Shown here: piece after piece, positions 1 to 57,227 of the stretch | Layout: every line of letters begins with the position of its first letter | Position numbering within the stretch: the first letter of the stretch is position 1 | Translations under genes and position numbers: made by a program | Source of the DNA: an uncultured delta proteobacterium | GTDB taxonomy: Bacteria > Desulfobacterota > Desulfuromonadia > Desulfuromonadales > BM103 | Length of the DNA: 64,000 bases | NCBI GenBank assembly: GCA_963715335.1 | Contig: CAVQRZ010000014.1 | Location: forward strand, 1-64,000 | Direction: 5' to 3' | Notes under the pieces: model-generated | The model's database searches: none | Seen by the model: only the letters and a program-made list of their open reading frames with translations | Told to the model about the DNA's origin: nothing

Positions 1-138
1 CGCAAGGAGAAGGCACTTTTGCATACTTTTGTTGCCGGACAAAAGTATGGCGTCGGGCGGGACGCGACCCGCCGGTTTTGCTTTTAAGCTTTTAAGAAGT
101 ACAAGAACAGAGGGCAACAGATTAACCTTCTGTTGTCC
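1..138 (+). repeat. Large palindromic dispersed element, copy 1 (right end only; cut by window edge)
   Basis: 1-88 nearly identical to 4815-4901, 23910-23997 and 44159-44244; ends in hairpin gggcaacagattaaccttctgttgtcc (112-138). Confidence 0.9.
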
Positions 139-265
139 ATAAGCTTCATAGAAACTCCACCCTCCAGATAAAAAAACACCCCCCACATCAGATGCGGGGG
201 GTGTCAACAACCTGAGCCGGAGCCCGTAAGGGTTCCGGCTTTATTTTATGTATCGTCAGTGTGCC

Positions 266-4416: not shown

Positions 4417-4929
4417 AAGGGCAACAGATGGTTCATCTGTTGCCCTTTTTCGTTGTACTCTGGAATTCAAAGACAAAAGCAAAACCCGGGGTTGCGCCCC
4501 CCGACTGCGCCTTACTCTTTTGCTGGCCCAAAAGAGTAAGCAGAAAAGGGCCTGCGCTGCGCTGGGCATGTCTGGCTCGGAGTGGCGGCAACTTCAATGC
4601 AGAACTGTTCTAAACGATCAAAAGGCTACGCTTCCCCCGCAGGAGCCGAGGCTCTTGAGAGCCTCTCCATTTGTTGAGAGTTGTATCGGTTGTGATGTTT
4701 TTCAGGTTTTTCTCTTGTAGGTCACGCAGAAAGGTCAGGCCCTTTGACACAGGGCCGGATCCCCATCACAGCAGGTTGTTGAAGTCACAGACATCCGGCA
4801 GAGGAGATGCCCTCCGCAAGGAGAAGGCACTTTTGCATACTTTTGTTGCCGGACAAAAGTATGGCGTCGGGCGGGACGCGACCCGCCGGTTTTGCTTTTA
4901 AGCATTTCAAGAAAAAGAACAAGGGCAAC
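4417..4929 (+). repeat. Large palindromic dispersed element, copy 2
   Basis: Starts with hairpin aagggcaacagatg-gtt-catctgttgccctt; colinear with copies at 23503 and 43765 and, inverted, with 32290 and 56570. Confidence 0.92.
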
Positions 4930-5027
4930 TGACGCGGGAGTTTGGTCTGGACTTGCAGCGGATGAATTGGTATTAATGATTGTTATAAGAAGCTGCAAAA
5001 ACATCTGCATAAGGAGGAACTCTTCAC

Positions 5028-6008: not shown

Positions 6009-6103
6009 AGGTTTGTAGCGTGAGGCGCGAAGTGCGAGGCGCGACAAAAGATTGATAAGCACTTAAATCGGCGACAGTTACCTGATTTCATCCGCAATGA
6101 TGA

Positions 6104-8767: not shown

Positions 8768-8805
8768 AAAATGAGGAAAGATCGGTTAGACGCAAAGGAT
8801 TATGT

Positions 8806-8905
8806 ATTCAGAATCCAGTATCCAGAATCCAGAATTCAGTCAGGCGACTTCGACATTTGGGCTAGATTCTTAATTCTGGATACTGAATTCTTGATACTAG
8901 ATACT
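8806..8905. repeat. Inverted pair of heptamer arrays (AT[CT]CAG[AT])n
   Basis: attcaga atccagt atccaga atccaga attcagt (8806-8840), with a degenerate reverse-complement array at 8866-8905. Confidence 0.85.
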
Positions 8906-8972
8906 CTTTAACATTACACCGGTTAGCTCTACTTCAGACGCTTGCTGAATAGTATCAACAGGAATAGTTGTA

Positions 8973-10127: not shown

Positions 10128-10158
10128 AATCGTGGCAAGCTTTGGCCGGATATGGAGA

Positions 10159-10251
10159 ATTCAGTATCCAGTATCCAGAATTCAGTAGGAAAGTCTCAAG
10201 CTGTAGGGGTAAATTTTTATTCTGGATTCTGAATACTGGATTCTGAATACT
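10159..10251. repeat. Inverted pair of heptamer arrays (AT[CT]CAG[AT])n
   Basis: 4 units at 10159-10186 and ~5 reverse-complement units at 10219-10251, between nspC and speA. Confidence 0.88.
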
Positions 10252-10267
10252 CACGAAAGGTTCATCC

Positions 10268-15243: not shown

Positions 15244-15278
15244 CTACCCGATATCGGGTGTGGTCGTTGCTGTCCAGT

Positions 15279-15370
15279 CCGCTTCCCTCCGCCGGTATGA
15301 TCCGGATCAGGTTCCAAGGGTCGTTCCGTCATGAGACGAAACTCTCAGTAATCTTCTACTCCCCTAGCGG
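15279..15370 (-). promoter_or_regulatory. TPP riboswitch upstream of thiDE-thiC
   Basis: Minus strand ctaggggag...ctgaga...gacccttggaacctgatccggatcataccggcggagggaagcgg matches the THI-box core. Confidence 0.95.
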
Positions 15371-15558
15371 TGGCGCAGTAATGTAGCGGATCACCCGGTC
15401 AGGTCAGGCCAATCCGGTTGTTCAGTGTTTTTTCTCCTGAATCGCGGCAGCGATGGCACGGTGCCTGGCGAAGACATCAATCTGCCGCATAAGTTCAAAC
15501 TTAGATGATCTGACTCGGTCAGCGTAGAATATTGCGAGAGGGGCTGTCAACTTTTAAA

Positions 15559-17215: not shown

Positions 17216-18781
17216 ATGGCTGTTATCAAACGTGCATTAATCAGTGTTTCCGACAAAACCGGCATCGTTGAGCTTGCCGAAGGCTTGCGCAAGTTCGGTG
17301 TTGAAATCCTTTCCACGGGAGGCACCGCGAGCATGATGCGGGAAGCCGGGCTTGAGGTGAAGGATGTATCCGAACACACCGGCTACCCGGAAATGCTTGA
17401 CGGCCGCGTCAAGACGTTGCACCCGAAAATTCACGGCGGCCTGCTTGGCCTGCGCGACAACCCTGCCCATGTTGCCAAGATGGCCGAGCATGGCATCAAG
17501 CCGATTGACATGGTGGTGGTTAATCTTTACCCCTTCGAAGCAACCGTCGCCAACCCCGACTGCTCCCTCGAAGACGCTATCGAGAACATCGATATCGGCG
17601 GCCCGACCATGCTGCGGAGCGCCGCCAAGAACAACCAGGCGGTAACAGTGGTTGTCGACCCGGCCGATTATGCTGTCGTCCTTGATGAGATGAACGCCAA
17701 TAACGGTGAGGTCTGCCGTGAAACCAACTTCCGCCTGGCGCTGAAGGTCTACCAGCGCACCGCGGCCTACGATGCCGCCATCTCCAACTGGCTCGGCAAA
17801 CGGGTCGATGCAGAGAGCGCCGATTTCCCGAGCGCTTTGACCTTCCAGTACCAACGCACCGAGATCATGCGCTACGGCGAGAACCCGCACCAGAAGGCGG
17901 CCTTCTACGTCGAAAGCGATCTCCAGGAAGCCTCGATCGCCACCGCCCGGCAGCTGCAGGGCAAGCAGCTCTCCTACAACAATATCGCCGATACGGACGC
18001 CGCCCTCGAGTGCGTCAAGCAGTTCAGTGACGGCCCGGCCTGTGTTATCGTCAAACACGCCAACCCCTGTGGCGTCGCTTATGGCGACACCCTGCTCGAT
18101 GCTTACCAGCGCGCCTTCAGCACCGATACCGAATCAGCTTTCGGCGGGATTATCGCCTTTAACCGTGAGCTCGATGCGGCGACGGCCCAGGAGATCGTCG
18201 ACAAACAGTTCGTCGAAGTCATCATCGCGCCGAAGGTTGGTGCCGGAGTGAGCGAGATTGTTGCTGCGAAGAAGAACGTCCGTCTGCTTGAATGCGGAGA
18301 ATGGCCGACACAGCCGGCTGCCCGTCTCGACCTGAAACGGGTCAACGGTGGCATGCTGGTACAGGACCTTGACCTCGAGCTGACCGGGGAACTGAAGGTC
18401 GTCAGCAAACGTCAGCCGACCGCCGCCGAGATGAAGGATATGCTCTTCACCTGGCGGGTATCCAAGTTCGTCAAGTCCAATGCGATCGTCTACGGCAAGG
18501 ACTGCATGACGATCGGTGTTGGCGCCGGCCAGATGAGCCGGGTCAACTCGGCACGGATCGCCGCGATCAAGGCTGAACATGCAGGACTTGAAGTCAAGGG
18601 GGCGGTGATGGCCTCTGATGCATTCTTCCCATTCCGTGACGGGATCGACAATGCTGCCGCTGTCGGCATCAGCGCGGTCATCCAGCCGGGCGGTTCGATC
18701 CGTGATGAAGAGGTGATTGCCGCTGCTGACGAACACGGCATGGCGATGGTCTTTACCGGGATGCGGCATTTTAGACATTAG
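17216..18781 (+). CDS. purH: Bifunctional AICAR formyltransferase / IMP cyclohydrolase
   Basis: [38 protein letters not shown] and C-terminal RHFRH. Confidence 0.97.
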
Positions 18782-18786
18782 GCGAA

Positions 18787-20281
<1,495 letters not shown>

Positions 20282-23502: not shown

Positions 23503-24044
23503 AGCAAGGGGACATGTACTCGTTACGTGTCCCCTTTGCTATTGTCTACTGAAATTCAAAGATAAAATCAAAATCAAAACCCGGGGGTTGCGCCCCCCGA
23601 CTGCGCCTTACTCTTTTGCTGGCCTAAAAGAGTAAGCAGAAAAGGGCCTGCGCTGCGCTGGGCATGTCTGGCTCGGCAGGGCGGCAACCTCAATCCGGAT
23701 GGTTCTAAACGATCAAGAGTCTACGCTTCCCCCACAGGAGCCAAGGCTCTTGAGAGCCTCTCCTGCTGTGGAGGCTTGCAAAGAGTTGTCATGTTTCGTG
23801 GCTTTTCCCTTGTAAGTCACACGGCAAGGTCAGGCCCTTTGACACAGGGCCGGATCCCCATCACAGAAGGTTATTGAAGTCACAGACATCCGGCAGAGGA
23901 GATGCCCTCCGCAAGGAGAAGGCACTTTTGCATACTTTTGTTGCCGGACAAAAGTATGGCGTCGGGCGGGACGCGACCCGCCGGTTTTGCTTTTAAGCAT
24001 TTCAAGAAAAGGAAAGAGGGCAACAGATGAACCCTCTATTACCT
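23503..24044 (+). repeat. Large palindromic dispersed element, copy 3
   Basis: Core colinear with copy 2; left hairpin is agcaaggggacatgta...tacgtgtcccctttgct; right end gggcaacagatgaacc. Confidence 0.92.
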
Positions 24045-24123
24045 TCTCTGTCGCGAAGTCTGGCTAAACTTTGTCAGCAGCCTGATATATAATCGCTCCT
24101 TATTTGAATGAAGGCTTTCTCTC

Positions 24124-27341: not shown

Positions 27342-27495
27342 CGCTGTGTATACGTATTTATACCAATATACAGCCATACGTTTTTCTGTTACTTAAAACA
27401 TCAGGGAATAATTTATGTAATTTGTGTGTTGATTAAAGATAAGCATTCCCTGAGTTGGAAGAGTCAAAAGAGCGTCGATTGTGGAGTGAGTAACA

Positions 27496-27574
27496 CTCTG
27501 TAAAGGCAAAATCAGGGCAACTTGATGGCGCAAAGCCACGGGTCCTCAACAGAGGATCGTCGGGCTCCCGGGGG
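27496..27574 (+). promoter_or_regulatory. Cyclic di-GMP-I (GEMM) riboswitch
   Basis: aaaggcaaa-atcagg-gcaa-cttgat-ggcgcaaagcc-acgggtcctc-aaca-gaggatcgtcgggc; GNRA-capped P2 and P3 as in GEMM. Confidence 0.8.
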
Positions 27575-32263: not shown

Positions 32264-32289
32264 GGTTTTGACCGCTGACAAATAAAAAA

Positions 32290-32559
32290 ATCAAAGACAA
32301 AACCGGCGGGTCGCGTCCCGCCCGACGCCATACTTTTGTCCGGCAACAAAAGTATGCAAAAGTGCCTTCTCCTTGCGGAGGGCATCTCCTTGGCCGGATG
32401 TCTGTGACTTCAAGAACCTGTACTGATGGGGATCCGGCCCTGTGTCAAAGGGCCTGACCTTTTTGTTTAATTTACCAGGGAAAAGCTAAAACAACCCCTA
32501 CCGACGCAAACCTCCACGAAAGGAGAGGCTCTCACGAGCCTCGGCTCCTTCGGGGGGAG
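32290..32559 (-). repeat. Large palindromic dispersed element, copy 4 (truncated, inverted)
   Basis: Reverse complement of the right arm and centre of copies 2, 3 and 5; breaks off near 32559. Confidence 0.9.
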
Positions 32560-43764: not shown

Positions 43765-44244
43765 GGGCAACAGATGGTTCATCTGTTGCCCTTTGCCGTT
43801 GTTCTTTGGAATTCAAAGATAAAAGCAAAACCCGGGGGTCGCGCCCCCCGACTGCGCCTTACTCTTTTGCTGGCCCAAAAGAGTAAGCAGAAAAAGGCCT
43901 GCGCTGCGCTGGGCATGTCTGGTGCGTCAGTGCGGCAACCTCAACCCGGATCGTTCTAAACGATCAAGAGTCTACGCTTCCCCCGCAGGAGCCGAGGCTC
44001 TTGAGAGCCTCTCCTGCTGTGGAGGCTTGCGTCGGTCGAGGTTGTTTTGGCTTTTCCCTGGCAAATCACACGGCAAGGTCAGGCCCTTTGACACAGGGCC
44101 GGATCCCCACAGTAAAGGTTTTTGAAGTCACAGAGATCCGGCAGAGGAGATGCCCTCCGCAAGGAGAAGGCATTTTTGCATACTTTTGTTGCCGGACAAA
44201 AGTATGGCGTCTGGCGGGACGCGACCCGCCGGTTTTTCTTTTAA
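43765..44244 (+). repeat. Large palindromic dispersed element, copy 5
   Basis: Starts gggcaacagatggttcatctgttgccc; colinear with copies 2 and 3; right terminal hairpin missing. Confidence 0.92.
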
Positions 44245-44269
44245 CTGTAGGTTTTCAACTTTTTGGTAA

Positions 44270-46858: not shown

Positions 46859-47986
46859 CTTCTCAATCGAATCCCGATTGAGAAAAGCATTATCCCAATC
46901 CTTCCACACCGGGTCATAACCACGCGCCCTGAGGATATCAGCAATTTCGGCCGGAGTGCGATCGTCATCGATCTTGAACTGCTCGGTAGCGGAGCCTTGT
47001 TCGGCATAACCGCCGGGGGCGGTACAGGAACCGGCACTCATCTGGGTGATGCCGAGAGGCAGCAGGTTGTCGCGCAGGTCAGCACTCTCCCGGGTGGACA
47101 GGACCAGCCCGGCGTCGTGAAGCAGGAGGCGCATGGCGCACAGCAGTTGTACGAACTGCCGGTCGGAGACCGGGTGGGGGGGCTGGAAGCCGCCTTCGGC
47201 AGGGCGCAAGCGCGGGAAAGAAACGGTCAGCAGGGTGCGCCAGTAATGATGCGCCAGGTAGCGGCCGTGCAAGCCGGCGAAGAAGGCTTCGCTGCGAAAA
47301 TTCCCCAGTCCCAGCAGGAAGCCGATACCGATCCGGCGCAGGCCCGCCGTTCCGCCCCGCTCTGGGGTCTCCAGGCGAAAGCGGTAGTCCCGCTTGCGCC
47401 CGCTCGGATGAAGCTGTGCGTAGAGCTCCTGGTTGTAAGTCTCCTGGTAGATCGTCAGGGCATCGACTCCGGCGTCAACCATTTCCCTGTAGCCATCGGT
47501 CTCCATCGGGTAGACTTCAATGCCGATCGATGAGAAAAGCGGTCTGATCCGTTTCGCCGCCGCCGCAATGAAGTCGTTGCCAATCAGGCCCGGTGCTTCA
47601 CCGGTCAGCAGCAAAATGTGACGGAAGCCTTGATCATGCAAAATCCGGGCATCTTTCTCGACCTCGTCGAGGGTCAGGGTGCGGCGCGGAATCTTGTTGT
47701 GCACCGAGAACCCGCAATAGAGACAGCTGTTGTGACACTCGTTGGAGAGATAGAGCGGCGCGTAAAGCAGCACGGTACGACCGAACCGGCGCAACGTGAT
47801 GGAGTGGGCTTTCCGAGCGATCTCTTCGAGGAACTCCTCGGCGGCCGGCGAGAGCAGGGCCATGTAGTCGCGGTTGTCGATCTGCTCCGCGGCCAGCGCC
47901 CGTTGAACATCCGTTGCGGTCATTGCCTCGATTTGGTTCATGACCAGTTGCGGATCGTATTTTTGAATGATGTCGTAGAAGCTCAT
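46835..47986 (-). CDS. thiH: 2-iminoacetate synthase
   Basis: YAPLY.SN.C.N.C.YCGF, YQETY, S.PR.RP and S.T.PGGY. Confidence 0.94.
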   Translation of the reverse strand: MSFYDIIQKYDPQLVMNQIEAMTATDVQRALAAEQIDNRDYMALLSPAAEEFLEEIARKAHSITLRRFGRTVLLYAPLYLSNECHNSCLYCGFSVHNKIPRRTLTLDEVEKDARILHDQGFRHILLLTGEAPGLIGNDFIAAAAKRIRPLFSSIGIEVYPMETDGYREMVDAGVDALTIYQETYNQELYAQLHPSGRKRDYRFRLETPERGGTAGLRRIGIGFLLGLGNFRSEAFFAGLHGRYLAHHYWRTLLTVSFPRLRPAEGGFQPPHPVSDRQFVQLLCAMRLLLHDAGLVLSTRESADLRDNLLPLGITQMSAGSCTAPGGYAEQGSATEQFKIDDDRTPAEIADILRARGYDPVWKDWDNAFLNRDSIEKSEVRGER

Positions 47987-48009
47987 AAAAATCTCTAGGG
48001 AATCAAGCA

Positions 48010-48087
48010 TCCAGAATTCGGTATTAAGAAGAAAATCTTCAAAGCTTTTGATCCTTTGCTGAATTCTGAATACTGGCTACTGAATAC
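48010..48087. repeat. Inverted heptamer arrays between thiG and thiH
   Basis: atccaga attcggt attaaga ... gctgaat tctgaat actggct actgaat act. Confidence 0.75.
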
Positions 48088-48864
48088 TTAAAGTTGTTTC
48101 CTCAAAAATCCTGTCAACGGACTGCTCGCTTCCGCCTTGTCCTGCTGTTTGCCGAGCCCGGCGAGGTAGGCTTCGCGGCCTGCTTCGACGCCTTTTCTAA
48201 AAGCGGCAGCCATGGCACCGGGGTCGCGGGCGACGGCCAGGGCGGTATTGACCAGCACGGCATCGGCGCCCATTTCCATCGCTTCCGCTGCATGGGAGGG
48301 GGCACCGAGTCCGGCATCAACCACCACAGGTACGGTGGCCTGCTCAATGATAATGGCGATGTTGTCGCGGGTCCGTAACCCCTTGTTGGTGCCGATCGGT
48401 GCGCCGAGAGGCATGACCGTTGCGGTCCCTGCTTCCTGAAGGTGTTTGGCCAGCACCGGGTCGGCGTTTATGTAGGGCAGGACGATAAAGCCTTCCTTGA
48501 CCAGGACCTCTGCGGCCTTGAGAGTTTCGATCGGGTCTGGCAACAGGTAATAGGGGTCCGGTGTGACTTCAAGCTTGATCCAGGGCTCGCAACCTGCGGC
48601 ACGGGCAATTCTGGCCAGGCGAATCGCTTCCTCGGCATCGCGTGCTCCACTGGTATTGGGCAGCAACAGGTAGCGCTTCGGGTCGATATGTTTGAGCATG
48701 CTGTCCTGGGGATTGTCGATATCCACCCGACGCATGGCCACGGTAACGATCTCGCTGCCTGAACCTTCCATAGCCGCGACCATCGCTTCGTTTGACGCAA
48801 ACTTGCCGGTGCCGACCATCAGCCGTGAGTTGAAAGAGCGTCCGGCAATTATCAGTTGATCCAT
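48088..48864 (-). CDS. thiG: Thiazole synthase
   Basis: SRL.VGTGKF, LPNTSG, WIKLEV, MPLG.PIG and DAG.G.PS. Confidence 0.96.
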
Positions 48865-48899
48865 TGTTAAATTCCTTGGGAATGATGGAGTGTTCAGGT

Positions 48900-48948
48900 G
48901 CCAGTATTCAGAATCCAGAATCCAGAATCCAGAATCCAGAATCCAGGA
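48900..48948. repeat. Heptamer tandem array (ATCCAGA)n between thiS and thiG
   Basis: gccagt attcaga, then four perfect atccaga units, then atccagg. Confidence 0.9.
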
Positions 48949-48964
48949 ATTCTCGTTTTAAGTT

Positions 48965-49165
48965 TTATCCCCCCCCGACAAAGTGGATGACTTCCAGGGT
49001 GTCGCCGTCTTTCAAGGCGGTTTCCGCCAATCGCTGGCGCGGGATAATCTGGTGATTATGTTCCACCACGACCTGCAGGCAATCCAACCGCAGCTGATCG
49101 AGCACTTCCTGTATGGAGGTGCCGGCCATCAGTTTGCGCGGTTTGCCGTTGAAGAGGATATCCAT
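48965..49165 (-). CDS. thiS: Sulfur carrier protein ThiS
   Basis: 66 aa ubiquitin-like protein ending FVGGG. Confidence 0.93.
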   Translation of the reverse strand: MDILFNGKPRKLMAGTSIQEVLDQLRLDCLQVVVEHNHQIIPRQRLAETALKDGDTLEVIHFVGGG

Positions 49166-49183
49166 TGATTGAAAACCTTTGGT

Positions 49184-49260
49184 ATTCAGTAGCCAGTATC
49201 CAGAATTTAAGGAGAGAGTCGAAGGATGGTTATTCATCCCTTCTGGGTACTGGATACTGA
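49184..49260. repeat. Inverted heptamer arrays between thiF and thiS
   Basis: attcagt agccagt atccaga ... ttctggg tactgga tactga. Confidence 0.78.
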
Positions 49261-50169: not shown

Positions 50170-50190
50170 CCGGTAGATATCCGAAATTTG

Positions 50191-50280
50191 CGCCGCTTCC
50201 CTACGCCGGTATAACCCGGATCAGGTTCAAGGGGTCGTCTGCCGTGCAGACTCTCAGTAGTCGCTACTCCCCCAGGGCGT
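50191..50280 (-). promoter_or_regulatory. TPP riboswitch upstream of thiFSGHE
   Basis: Minus strand gggggag...ctgaga...gaccccttgaacctgatccgggttataccggcgtagggaag. Confidence 0.95.
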
Positions 50281-50434
50281 GTTGCTTGCTCTGTACCAAT
50301 GAAGATTAACAGGCGGCTTTAACCGCAGTCAACAGGAAAGCCGCCTTTTCGGTTGTCACGATGAAAAGCTTCGACTAGGATGGAATCTTTCCAGGTCTTT
50401 CGGGTTGTCTCAACAGTTATGAAAGGATCCACCA

Positions 50435-56480: not shown

Positions 56481-56569
56481 CCTTCGCGAACTGATCGCCG
56501 GAAAAAAGCGGGCAGGGTTCCTCTGCCTTCTCAGGCTGCTGGCAATGTTCAGCCTGCATTCATCATAGA

Positions 56570-57128
56570 AAGGGCAACAGATGGTTCATCTGTTGCCCTT
56601 TGCTATTTTTCTGGAATTCAAAGACTTAAAAGCAAAACCGGCGGGTCGCGCCCGCCCGACGCCATACTCTTTTCCGGCAACAAAGAGTAAGCAGAAAAGG
56701 GCCTTCTCCTTGCGGAGGGCATGTCTGTGCTCGGAATGTCGGTGACCTCAAAACCTCTGTGATGGGGATCCGGCCCTGTGTCAAAGGGCCTGACGCTTCC
56801 CGTGCGACTTACAGGAGCCAAAGCTCTTAAGAGCCTCTCCTGCCGATGCAAGTCTCCACAGATAGGAGAGGCTCTCAAGAGCCTCGGCTCCTGAATCGGG
56901 GGAAGCGTAGGCCCTTTGACCAGGTCCGGATCCCATCCGCAGATTTGAAGTTGCAGCCATCCGAGCCAGACATGCCCACCGCAAGGCGCAGGCCCTTTTC
57001 TGCTTACTCTTTTGGGCCGGACAAAAGAGTAAGGCGCAGTCGGGGGGCGCAACCCGCCGGGTTTTGCTTTTGACTTTGAATTCCAGAATACAATAGCTTA
57101 GGGCAACAGATTAACCATCTGTTGCCCT
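56570..57128 (-). repeat. Large palindromic dispersed element, copy 6 (complete and most symmetric)
   Basis: 56570-56841 aligns over its whole length with the reverse complement of 56864-57128; terminal hairpins at both ends. Confidence 0.93.
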
Positions 57129-57227
57129 AAGCTTCATAGCAACTTCCACTTGCCAGGTAAAAAAACAACCCCCGCATCGGTGCGAGGGCTGTCAACAATC
57201 TAAGCGGGCGGGGTTTTCCCGTCCGCT

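Follow-up and report, generated by a model that had tools for sequence, protein, structure and literature searches.

The repeat that occurs six times in the 64-kb window (the whole stretch of DNA analysed here, which opens contig C14 of genome G000) is probably a nested non-coding element, in which a shell resembling IS1182-family insertion sequences and moved in trans encloses a hairpin-rich core that would spread as single-stranded DNA. With copy 6 as query, all six related copies are found at about the coordinates given in an earlier, sequence-only reading of this DNA, and copies 4 and 6 are indeed oriented opposite to the other four. Across G000 (3.30 Mb in 43 contigs), the same query yields 95 match clusters that merge to 80 loci, 79 of which contain an arm of the core; the hundreds of copies once thought possible thus reduce to 79-80 loci, at about four times the genome mean density in the window. 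This count includes three loci doubled on alternative-haplotype contigs, because the bin contains duplicated stretches of 84-99.6% identity. Contigs C13, C15, C20, C24, C32, C37 and C42 are such haplotypes (91-99% identical to larger contigs), which makes the bin a mix of related strains.

The anatomy of the element was obtained from orthologous sites in G002, G004, G001 and G003 (60 stretches compared). The composite is nested and reaches ~700 bp: two outer ends, X (~40 bp) and Y (~75 bp), are followed inwards by two 30-bp palindromes, H, and by a core of ~430 bp. The boundaries first assigned to copy 6, 56570-57128, are too narrow, the real composite of X, H, core, H and Y extending over 56532..57202 on the forward strand (671 bp). 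It comprises end X (56532..56569, forward strand), which resembles the left terminal repeat of the L233 group of IS1182-family elements; the left H (56570..56600; 11-bp arms, 5-nt loop); a core of two inverted arms (56629..57070, forward strand) with heads at 56629-56722 and 56972-57070, each containing hairpins hp1, hp2 and hp3; the right H (57099..57129), its loop inverted relative to that of the left H; and end Y (57132..57202, reverse strand), which matches the right end of an IS1182-family element, sub-terminal hairpin included. The composite lies between two host terminator-like hairpins, the left one (56507..56531) being single at the empty site in G004 and the right one (57203..57227) being its diverged duplicate with 12 matching bases.

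The other window copies show parts of this arrangement. Copy 1 (1..214, reverse strand), cut by the contig start, contains an arm A head (1-84), H (112-138) and end Y (144-214). Copy 2 (4417..4932, reverse strand), between convergent genes, consists of H, arm B, arm A and half an H, without X or Y. Copy 3 (23506..24084, reverse strand), downstream of ccsB, contains arm B, arm A, a decayed H and end X, together with an unrelated host hairpin (23506-23536) that is retained at the empty site in G004. Copy 4 (32287..32559, forward strand) is an arm A with a truncated interior between recO and glyQ, and copy 5 (43765..44246, reverse strand) is made of H, arm B and arm A; at the site of copy 5, the core has the opposite orientation in G002 and is reduced to a remnant in G003. 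The claim that the repeat contains no conserved ORF stands, since the longest ATG frame varies from 32 to 107 aa over 54 cores and its commonest start recurs in only 8 of them. That the window lacks a transposase holds for Y1 and DUF772, the two families scanned there, neither of which gave a match.

The window also contains a second repeat family, heptamer arrays of the CAGAATT/CAGTATC type in inverted pairs (8782-8906, 10142-10266, 18774-18994, 47985-48103 and 48882-49217), and a third, GC-rich heptamers of the GCGAGGC type (at 6020, 12195, 20292, 25708, 33777, 39857, 46727 and 50763), like arrays of which flank cores in G007. Rfam identifies two TPP riboswitches and one of the c-di-GMP-I type, at 15267-15375, 50181-50283 and 27495-27572.

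At the 79 G000 loci, at least one H is present at 60 and two at 39, while X is found at 36, Y at 29, both at 19 and either at 46; neither end was detected at the other 33. Two solo X-H-Y elements of 137-139 bp in G000 are shells without a core. The outer ends abut host terminator-like hairpins, and measuring from these ends brings out a target-site duplication where no clear one had been seen: 11 of 32 two-ended elements are flanked by direct repeats in which at least 12 bases match, as against 0.9% of mismatched flank pairs (six rows for the insertion sequences themselves set aside). The remaining 21 show no clear duplication, their flanks being diverged or unlike. Four filled/empty pairs, including copy 6 versus G004, display one hairpin when empty and two when filled.

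A coding partner for this shell is found in relatives. The X and Y profiles match the ends of L233, a 1.6-kb IS1182-family element in G030 (same family as G000), and those of L507-L511, X corresponding to the left and Y to the right end. The L233 transposase scores 487 bits against NF033551 (cut-off 270), and the element is flanked by an 18-bp duplicated hairpin. Of 233 genomes from the order, each scored for two candidates, 16 carry insertion sequences of this group, whose ends almost always adjoin a terminator-like hairpin; in G003, which belongs to the same genus as G000, the left 332 bp of one lies at a contig end. Five further full-length IS1182 copies include L510, with a perfect 27-bp duplication, and four that have two different flanking hairpins. 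A search of the 43 G000 contigs found no matching IS1182, and none was found beside arms. Two other elements were observed: L519 (G011), a 467-bp internally deleted derivative of an L233-group element, and L231 (G000 C6:2748-5966), an intact IS5-family element (316 bits) inside a gene with TTAA-like flanks. The latter, the DDE match of G000, was rejected as shell partner, since its ends, though similar, have 3 of 16 bases different and short TTAA-like repeats form its flanks.

The shell shares terminal inverted repeats with a coding IS1182 element, bears a target signature at palindromic targets, and is short, non-coding and multicopy; its assignment as a putative IS1182-derived MITE is well supported by these sequence features. 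The available part of PMC5678879 describes the IS1182 family as targeting stem-loops and proposes a route that duplicates the whole stem-loop. Like the stem-loop-targeting IS1182 elements of that source (IS1272) and like MITEs, the shell has terminal repeats of ~16 bp; like IS1272, as described in the same part, it is inserted at palindromes just 3' of genes; and like IS1182-family MITE derivatives it is non-coding, with a coding partner in relatives (L233). Unlike IS1272, which according to the part available removes its target hairpin, the shell leaves it duplicated or joined by a second hairpin. It also departs from IS1182-family MITEs in that most shells hold a 500-bp structured cargo and in that no coding partner was found in G000.

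In each H palindrome, an asymmetric spacer separates two arms of 11 bp. That the H palindromes arose simply as a duplicated target of the core was rejected, because no more than 3 of 28 distinct two-H composites have their H loops in direct orientation; this favours H-core-H as a ready-made inverted unit. Both this inverted arrangement and the asymmetric spacer would also suit a site-specific recombinase acting on H, with the core as an invertible switch, and one clean core flip does coincide with an H pair: between C12:59114 and its counterpart L194 in G002, the core is turned in place between the two H (92%, the best of 22), X and Y unchanged. Such a switch is nevertheless very improbable, for a flip also occurs at C29:12192, a locus without H; the two copies scanned contain no promoter-like site; most copies sit at gene 3' ends; and H is found alone as well.

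The core joins an arm A and an arm B in inverted orientation and is rich in hairpins. Each arm opens with a head of ~95 nt, preceded by an AAAACC-like sequence, that folds into three hairpins: hp1, which is GC-rich and on the outward strand terminates in a run of T, then hp2 and hp3. The 156 arms of G000 include 61 inverted pairs, and arms are also recombined into tandem dimers, triplets, mixed arm types and other interior types. Core sequences have a median identity of 88% and are 0.83-0.98 identical to their consensus; none of 1431 core pairs reaches 97% identity, and there is thus no sign of a current burst. In hp1 and hp2 (18 pairs, 22 arms), 94.7% of the pairing is kept, with 57 two-sided as against 4 one-sided changes, a count that makes a structured RNA less likely and is to be read with the structure derived from the same alignment and the sequences related. 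Covariation is almost exclusively of the Watson-Crick type, with almost no G-U type changes, and the hp2 mismatches (13 G-T versus 10 A-C) show no G-T strand bias. On the outward strand of 189 arms, the hp3 loops are GCAA (31), GCA (26), GCTA (12) and GCCA (12), with 73 unclassified, and hp1 loops end in GNRA on that strand. In 14 distant units, C(GNA)G mini-hairpins lie 26 times on the outward strand versus 5 times on the other. Non-paired positions and loop types are kept across families, pointing to a protein that recognises them. In single-stranded DNA, loops of the GNA and GNNA types are stable; together with the loop types found here, this favours a role at the DNA level.

Gene context bears on the same question. 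Of 75 G000 loci classified with a home-made gene caller (4 at contig edges left out), 39 lie between convergent, 34 between tandem and 2 between divergent genes, versus 124, 951 and 280 of 1355 other gaps. This strong bias towards gene 3' ends would fit a repeated structured RNA, or a terminator working in both directions, that is retained because it acts on transcripts nearby, and each of two copies contains seven terminator-like sites where shuffles have about one. The GNRA ends of the hp1 loops point the same way, and an RNA role would also fit single arms, whose outward strand is the sense strand in 28 of 41 tandem-gene cases (28 to 13). The core of G000, however, has no orientation preference between tandem genes (11 versus 9). 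The scarcity of G-U type changes, the frequency of GCA, GCTA and GCCA loops, the absence of an Rfam match and the differences between close relatives, in which sites can be empty, flipped or swapped, further argue against this alternative, which we consider improbable. No Rfam family reaches its gathering threshold for the element, nor for 18 loci with distant units, weak matches being far below. Flavo-1, considered as a possible identity of the arm, was rejected for want of an Rfam match, and two further candidates, attC and the IS91 ori, are unsupported.

One copy gives a different impression of the core. The sequence-only reading described copy 6 as one giant imperfect palindrome, its arms about three-quarters identical, and took this as a trait of the family. 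For copy 6 the figure is right (arm-to-arm global identity 0.77; 80% match with its own reverse complement), and the fold check bears it out: a single rod of -405.7 kcal/mol (z -28.7), with none of 100 shuffles as good. As a family trait the palindrome fails, for the arms are 0.48-0.56 identical in 51 of 54 regular cores (the 61 arm pairs minus 7 outside 405-450 bp), against a shuffled baseline of 0.46 (40 cores), the outliers being 0.60, 0.70 and copy 6. Copy 2, an ordinary copy, has a branched fold (z -4.8), and the family consensus forms mostly local hairpins.

Copy 6 is a patchwork: along both its arms, residues typical of arm A and of arm B alternate at intervals of a few bases. Among its diagnostic columns, 23 are of type A on both arms, 41 of type B on both, 35 unconverted and 2 swapped, and only 4 of 454 bases fit neither orientation of the consensus. 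Simulating a consensus of evenly mixed orientations reproduces the identity (0.74-0.77) and length (~450 bp) of copy 6, but in its simple form predicts ~20 swapped columns rather than 2. A mixed-read artefact therefore fits in part, and in-cell repair on a folded strand agrees with the symmetry; we give about even odds to arm-to-arm conversion in the cell and to a consensus made by merging oppositely oriented reads. None of the sequences from sequencing runs, all of them contigs, covers half of the stretch. Exact pieces from these runs reach into the flanks in places and, within copy 6, amount to short shared stretches only; at their low depth they prove neither origin, and one opposite-strand joint in the copy 6 region (depth 2.6) may stem from another copy.

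With identical sequences counted once, A/B patchwork cores number two in G000 and one of 11 in G004. An arm identity of at least 0.60 is reached by none of 24 cores from G002, 27 from metagenome contigs, 35 from genome contigs, 21 from other relatives or 6 from G001, G003 and G006; in three more G000 pairs, at 0.62-0.76, both arms are of the same kind. It is scarcely credible that the family functions in the shape of the near-perfect rod that copy 6 makes. The z score of copy 6 and its symmetric conversion, with 64 sites alike on both arms and 2 swapped, as folded-strand repair in the cell would give, speak for such a form; against it, only 2 of the 54 regular cores reach 0.70 identity, the patchwork disrupts the left hp2 stem and, in 19 of 22 converted indel columns, retains the extra base, and the mixed-orientation consensus accounts for identity and length, though not for the number of swapped sites. 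The rod is secondary under either origin. Among the copies of an imperfect palindrome, the one that stands out most can hence be a secondary patchwork, possibly made by assembly, a case that bears on scans ranking features by folding energy.

Comparison of orthologous loci, which the sequence-only reading had named as a check on mobility, revealed both empty and filled sites. With the IS1182-matching ends and the REPIN/BIME-like arrangement of the core, they support the part of that reading which saw a non-autonomous, REPIN/MITE-like mobile element. The copy 6 site is empty in G004, holds X-H and a remnant without core in G003, and carries another core type in G001. Fifteen orthologous core pairs divide into 7 of the same orientation, 6 flipped and 2 of another type, and among 13 comparable pairs there are just 2 in which a core is matched best by its orthologue. 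Even the G000 haplotype contigs C6 and C13 (95-96% alike) combine the same outer end and H with a different adjacent arm.

A search for an enzyme that could mobilise the core included several families. Arms lie alongside none of 35 Y1 loci (11 genomes), one of the 30 best RAYT loci, which is incidental as that gene has its own REPs, and none of 27 further RAYT loci. No arm was found at the Y2 element end at 30 IS91 loci, two weak matches (E above 0.1) proving not to be arms on inspection, and the 290 neighbouring ORFs of arms contain no recurring family. G000 itself encodes two RAYT-like Y1 genes, L001 (C10:40073) and L002 (C9:68347), which score 76.7 and 81.5 bits against a cut-off of 80; both are flanked by their own GGGACAC...GTGTCCC hairpins, different from the arm hairpins, and adjoin a flavodoxin-like ORF and the same 260-aa ORF.

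The absence of a mobiliser beside the arms could mean that the core has no enzyme of its own, riding the IS1182 shell and otherwise spreading, flipping and homogenising by host recombination and template switching. Conversion among copies predicts that orthologues are seldom best matches, as observed, and 46 of 79 G000 loci retain an X or Y end. This explanation is unlikely, since single, doublet and tandem arms occur in other families where the G000 X and Y profiles match nothing, distant units occur in other genomes of the phylum, and conservation across families extends to loop types and to positions that do not pair.

The arm family is broad. The arm head is present in 54 of 61 genomes searched, G000 included, with 9-51 copies in five near-complete genomes, and records matching an exact arm motif are mostly from Desulfuromonadales; Malonomonas rubra is a carrier. 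Other lineages contain single arms, doublets and near-identical tandem arrays (G040, G041, G053). Among 150 genomes in the phylum, weak arm matches occur in 9 others, at least three of which look like chance; the distant units at this level are single, ~200 bp and rich in mini-hairpins. Plasmid and phage records gave no match to copy 2, and viral contigs gave no exact match for two arm patterns and six loose matches for a third, one being a distant unit. A distant member of the arm superfamily was observed in a 37-kb viral contig (L443, 2356-2556). Six same-strand distant units in G054 (L530, 2500-11500) are separated by small cassette-like genes, which include a HIT protein with a phosphorothioate-sensing-type restriction nuclease (twice), an MntA-like nucleotidyltransferase and others, with no integrase among the ORFs listed. 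In G059, an IS4-family element (NF033592, 201 bits) is inserted four times at the same hp2 position of the arm (L527 3467-7450 and 11732-13060; L528 7211-8538; L529 8695-10021), one copy containing IS21. The G059 arm pairs 1.85 kb apart were rejected as an autonomous form because they enclose this inserted IS4, as was the L071 pair 1.75 kb apart, which encloses a metabolic-enzyme-like ORF that we take to be glyceraldehyde-3-phosphate-dehydrogenase-like.

How the element relates to known systems differs between its layers. The sequence-only reading could name no family, and held that a catalogued match would remove the novelty: for the core none is found in Rfam at the gathering score, whereas the outer ends match the IS1182 family. 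By its sequence features, the shell is classed as a new member of the IS1182-derived MITEs and the core as a REPIN/BIME-like unit uncatalogued in Rfam. The core is an inverted doublet of palindromic units in extragenic space, as REPINs and BIMEs are. It falls outside the REP definition in the available part of PMC3333891 (20-40 nt, GTAG at the 5' foot), its head being ~95 nt; the loci compared link it to no RAYT, and at the 30 IS91 loci the arm is not the end of an IS91-type rolling-circle element. As in REPINs with RAYT, to judge from the accessible parts of PMC3116915 and PMC5581495, the inverted doublet is the main unit, intergenic and found in tandem clusters, with copies scattered round one consensus and compensated hairpins. 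Unlike the REPINs described there, its arm heads are ~95 bp with three hairpins and its doublets ~430 bp, versus REP spacings of 71-110 bp; no GTAG is seen at the hairpin foot and no RAYT gene is flanked by arms. As far as the available part of PMC3333891 extends, it resembles BIMEs in joining two inverted units that differ from each other, in combining units as mosaics, in amplifying in tandem and in serving as an insertion-sequence target (here for IS4 in hp2), its units being much larger.

Multicopy intergenic palindromes are described without mechanism in Geobacter and Pelobacter in the accessible portions of PMC2996986, PMC2700814 and PMC3543383; they come from the same organism group and, in those portions, likewise form palindromic families clustering in shared intergenic regions. 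The arm may already be among them. The open-access text searched yielded no description of the element.

Based on the above data, we propose that an IS1182 transposase acting in trans would move the filled shell as a unit, and that the shell would insert at host terminator-like hairpins. The core would spread, swap and flip as single-stranded DNA, behaving as a large REPIN/BIME handled by an HUH (Y1-type) enzyme, by analogy with PMC3116915 and PMC3333891. From the loop types and covariation we infer that this enzyme would cleave the core as a single strand. Copies may be tolerated since they lie 3' of genes and provide a terminator-like hairpin at the end of each strand. More tentatively, the arm could be the local form of a widespread but uncatalogued class of large units that replicate as single-stranded DNA, several times the size of a REP and with an enzyme that is not adjacent, which has colonised an IS1182 miniature element and flips and exchanges fast enough to differ between co-occurring strains.

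The element illustrates clearly how one repeat can parasitise another in three layers, here in bacteria that reduce metals and sulfur, and individual sites supply dated states: empty, a shell without core, a core in one or the other orientation and another core type. As the arm family is broad, strongly structured and not in Rfam, discovery of its enzyme would extend the REP/RAYT paradigm.
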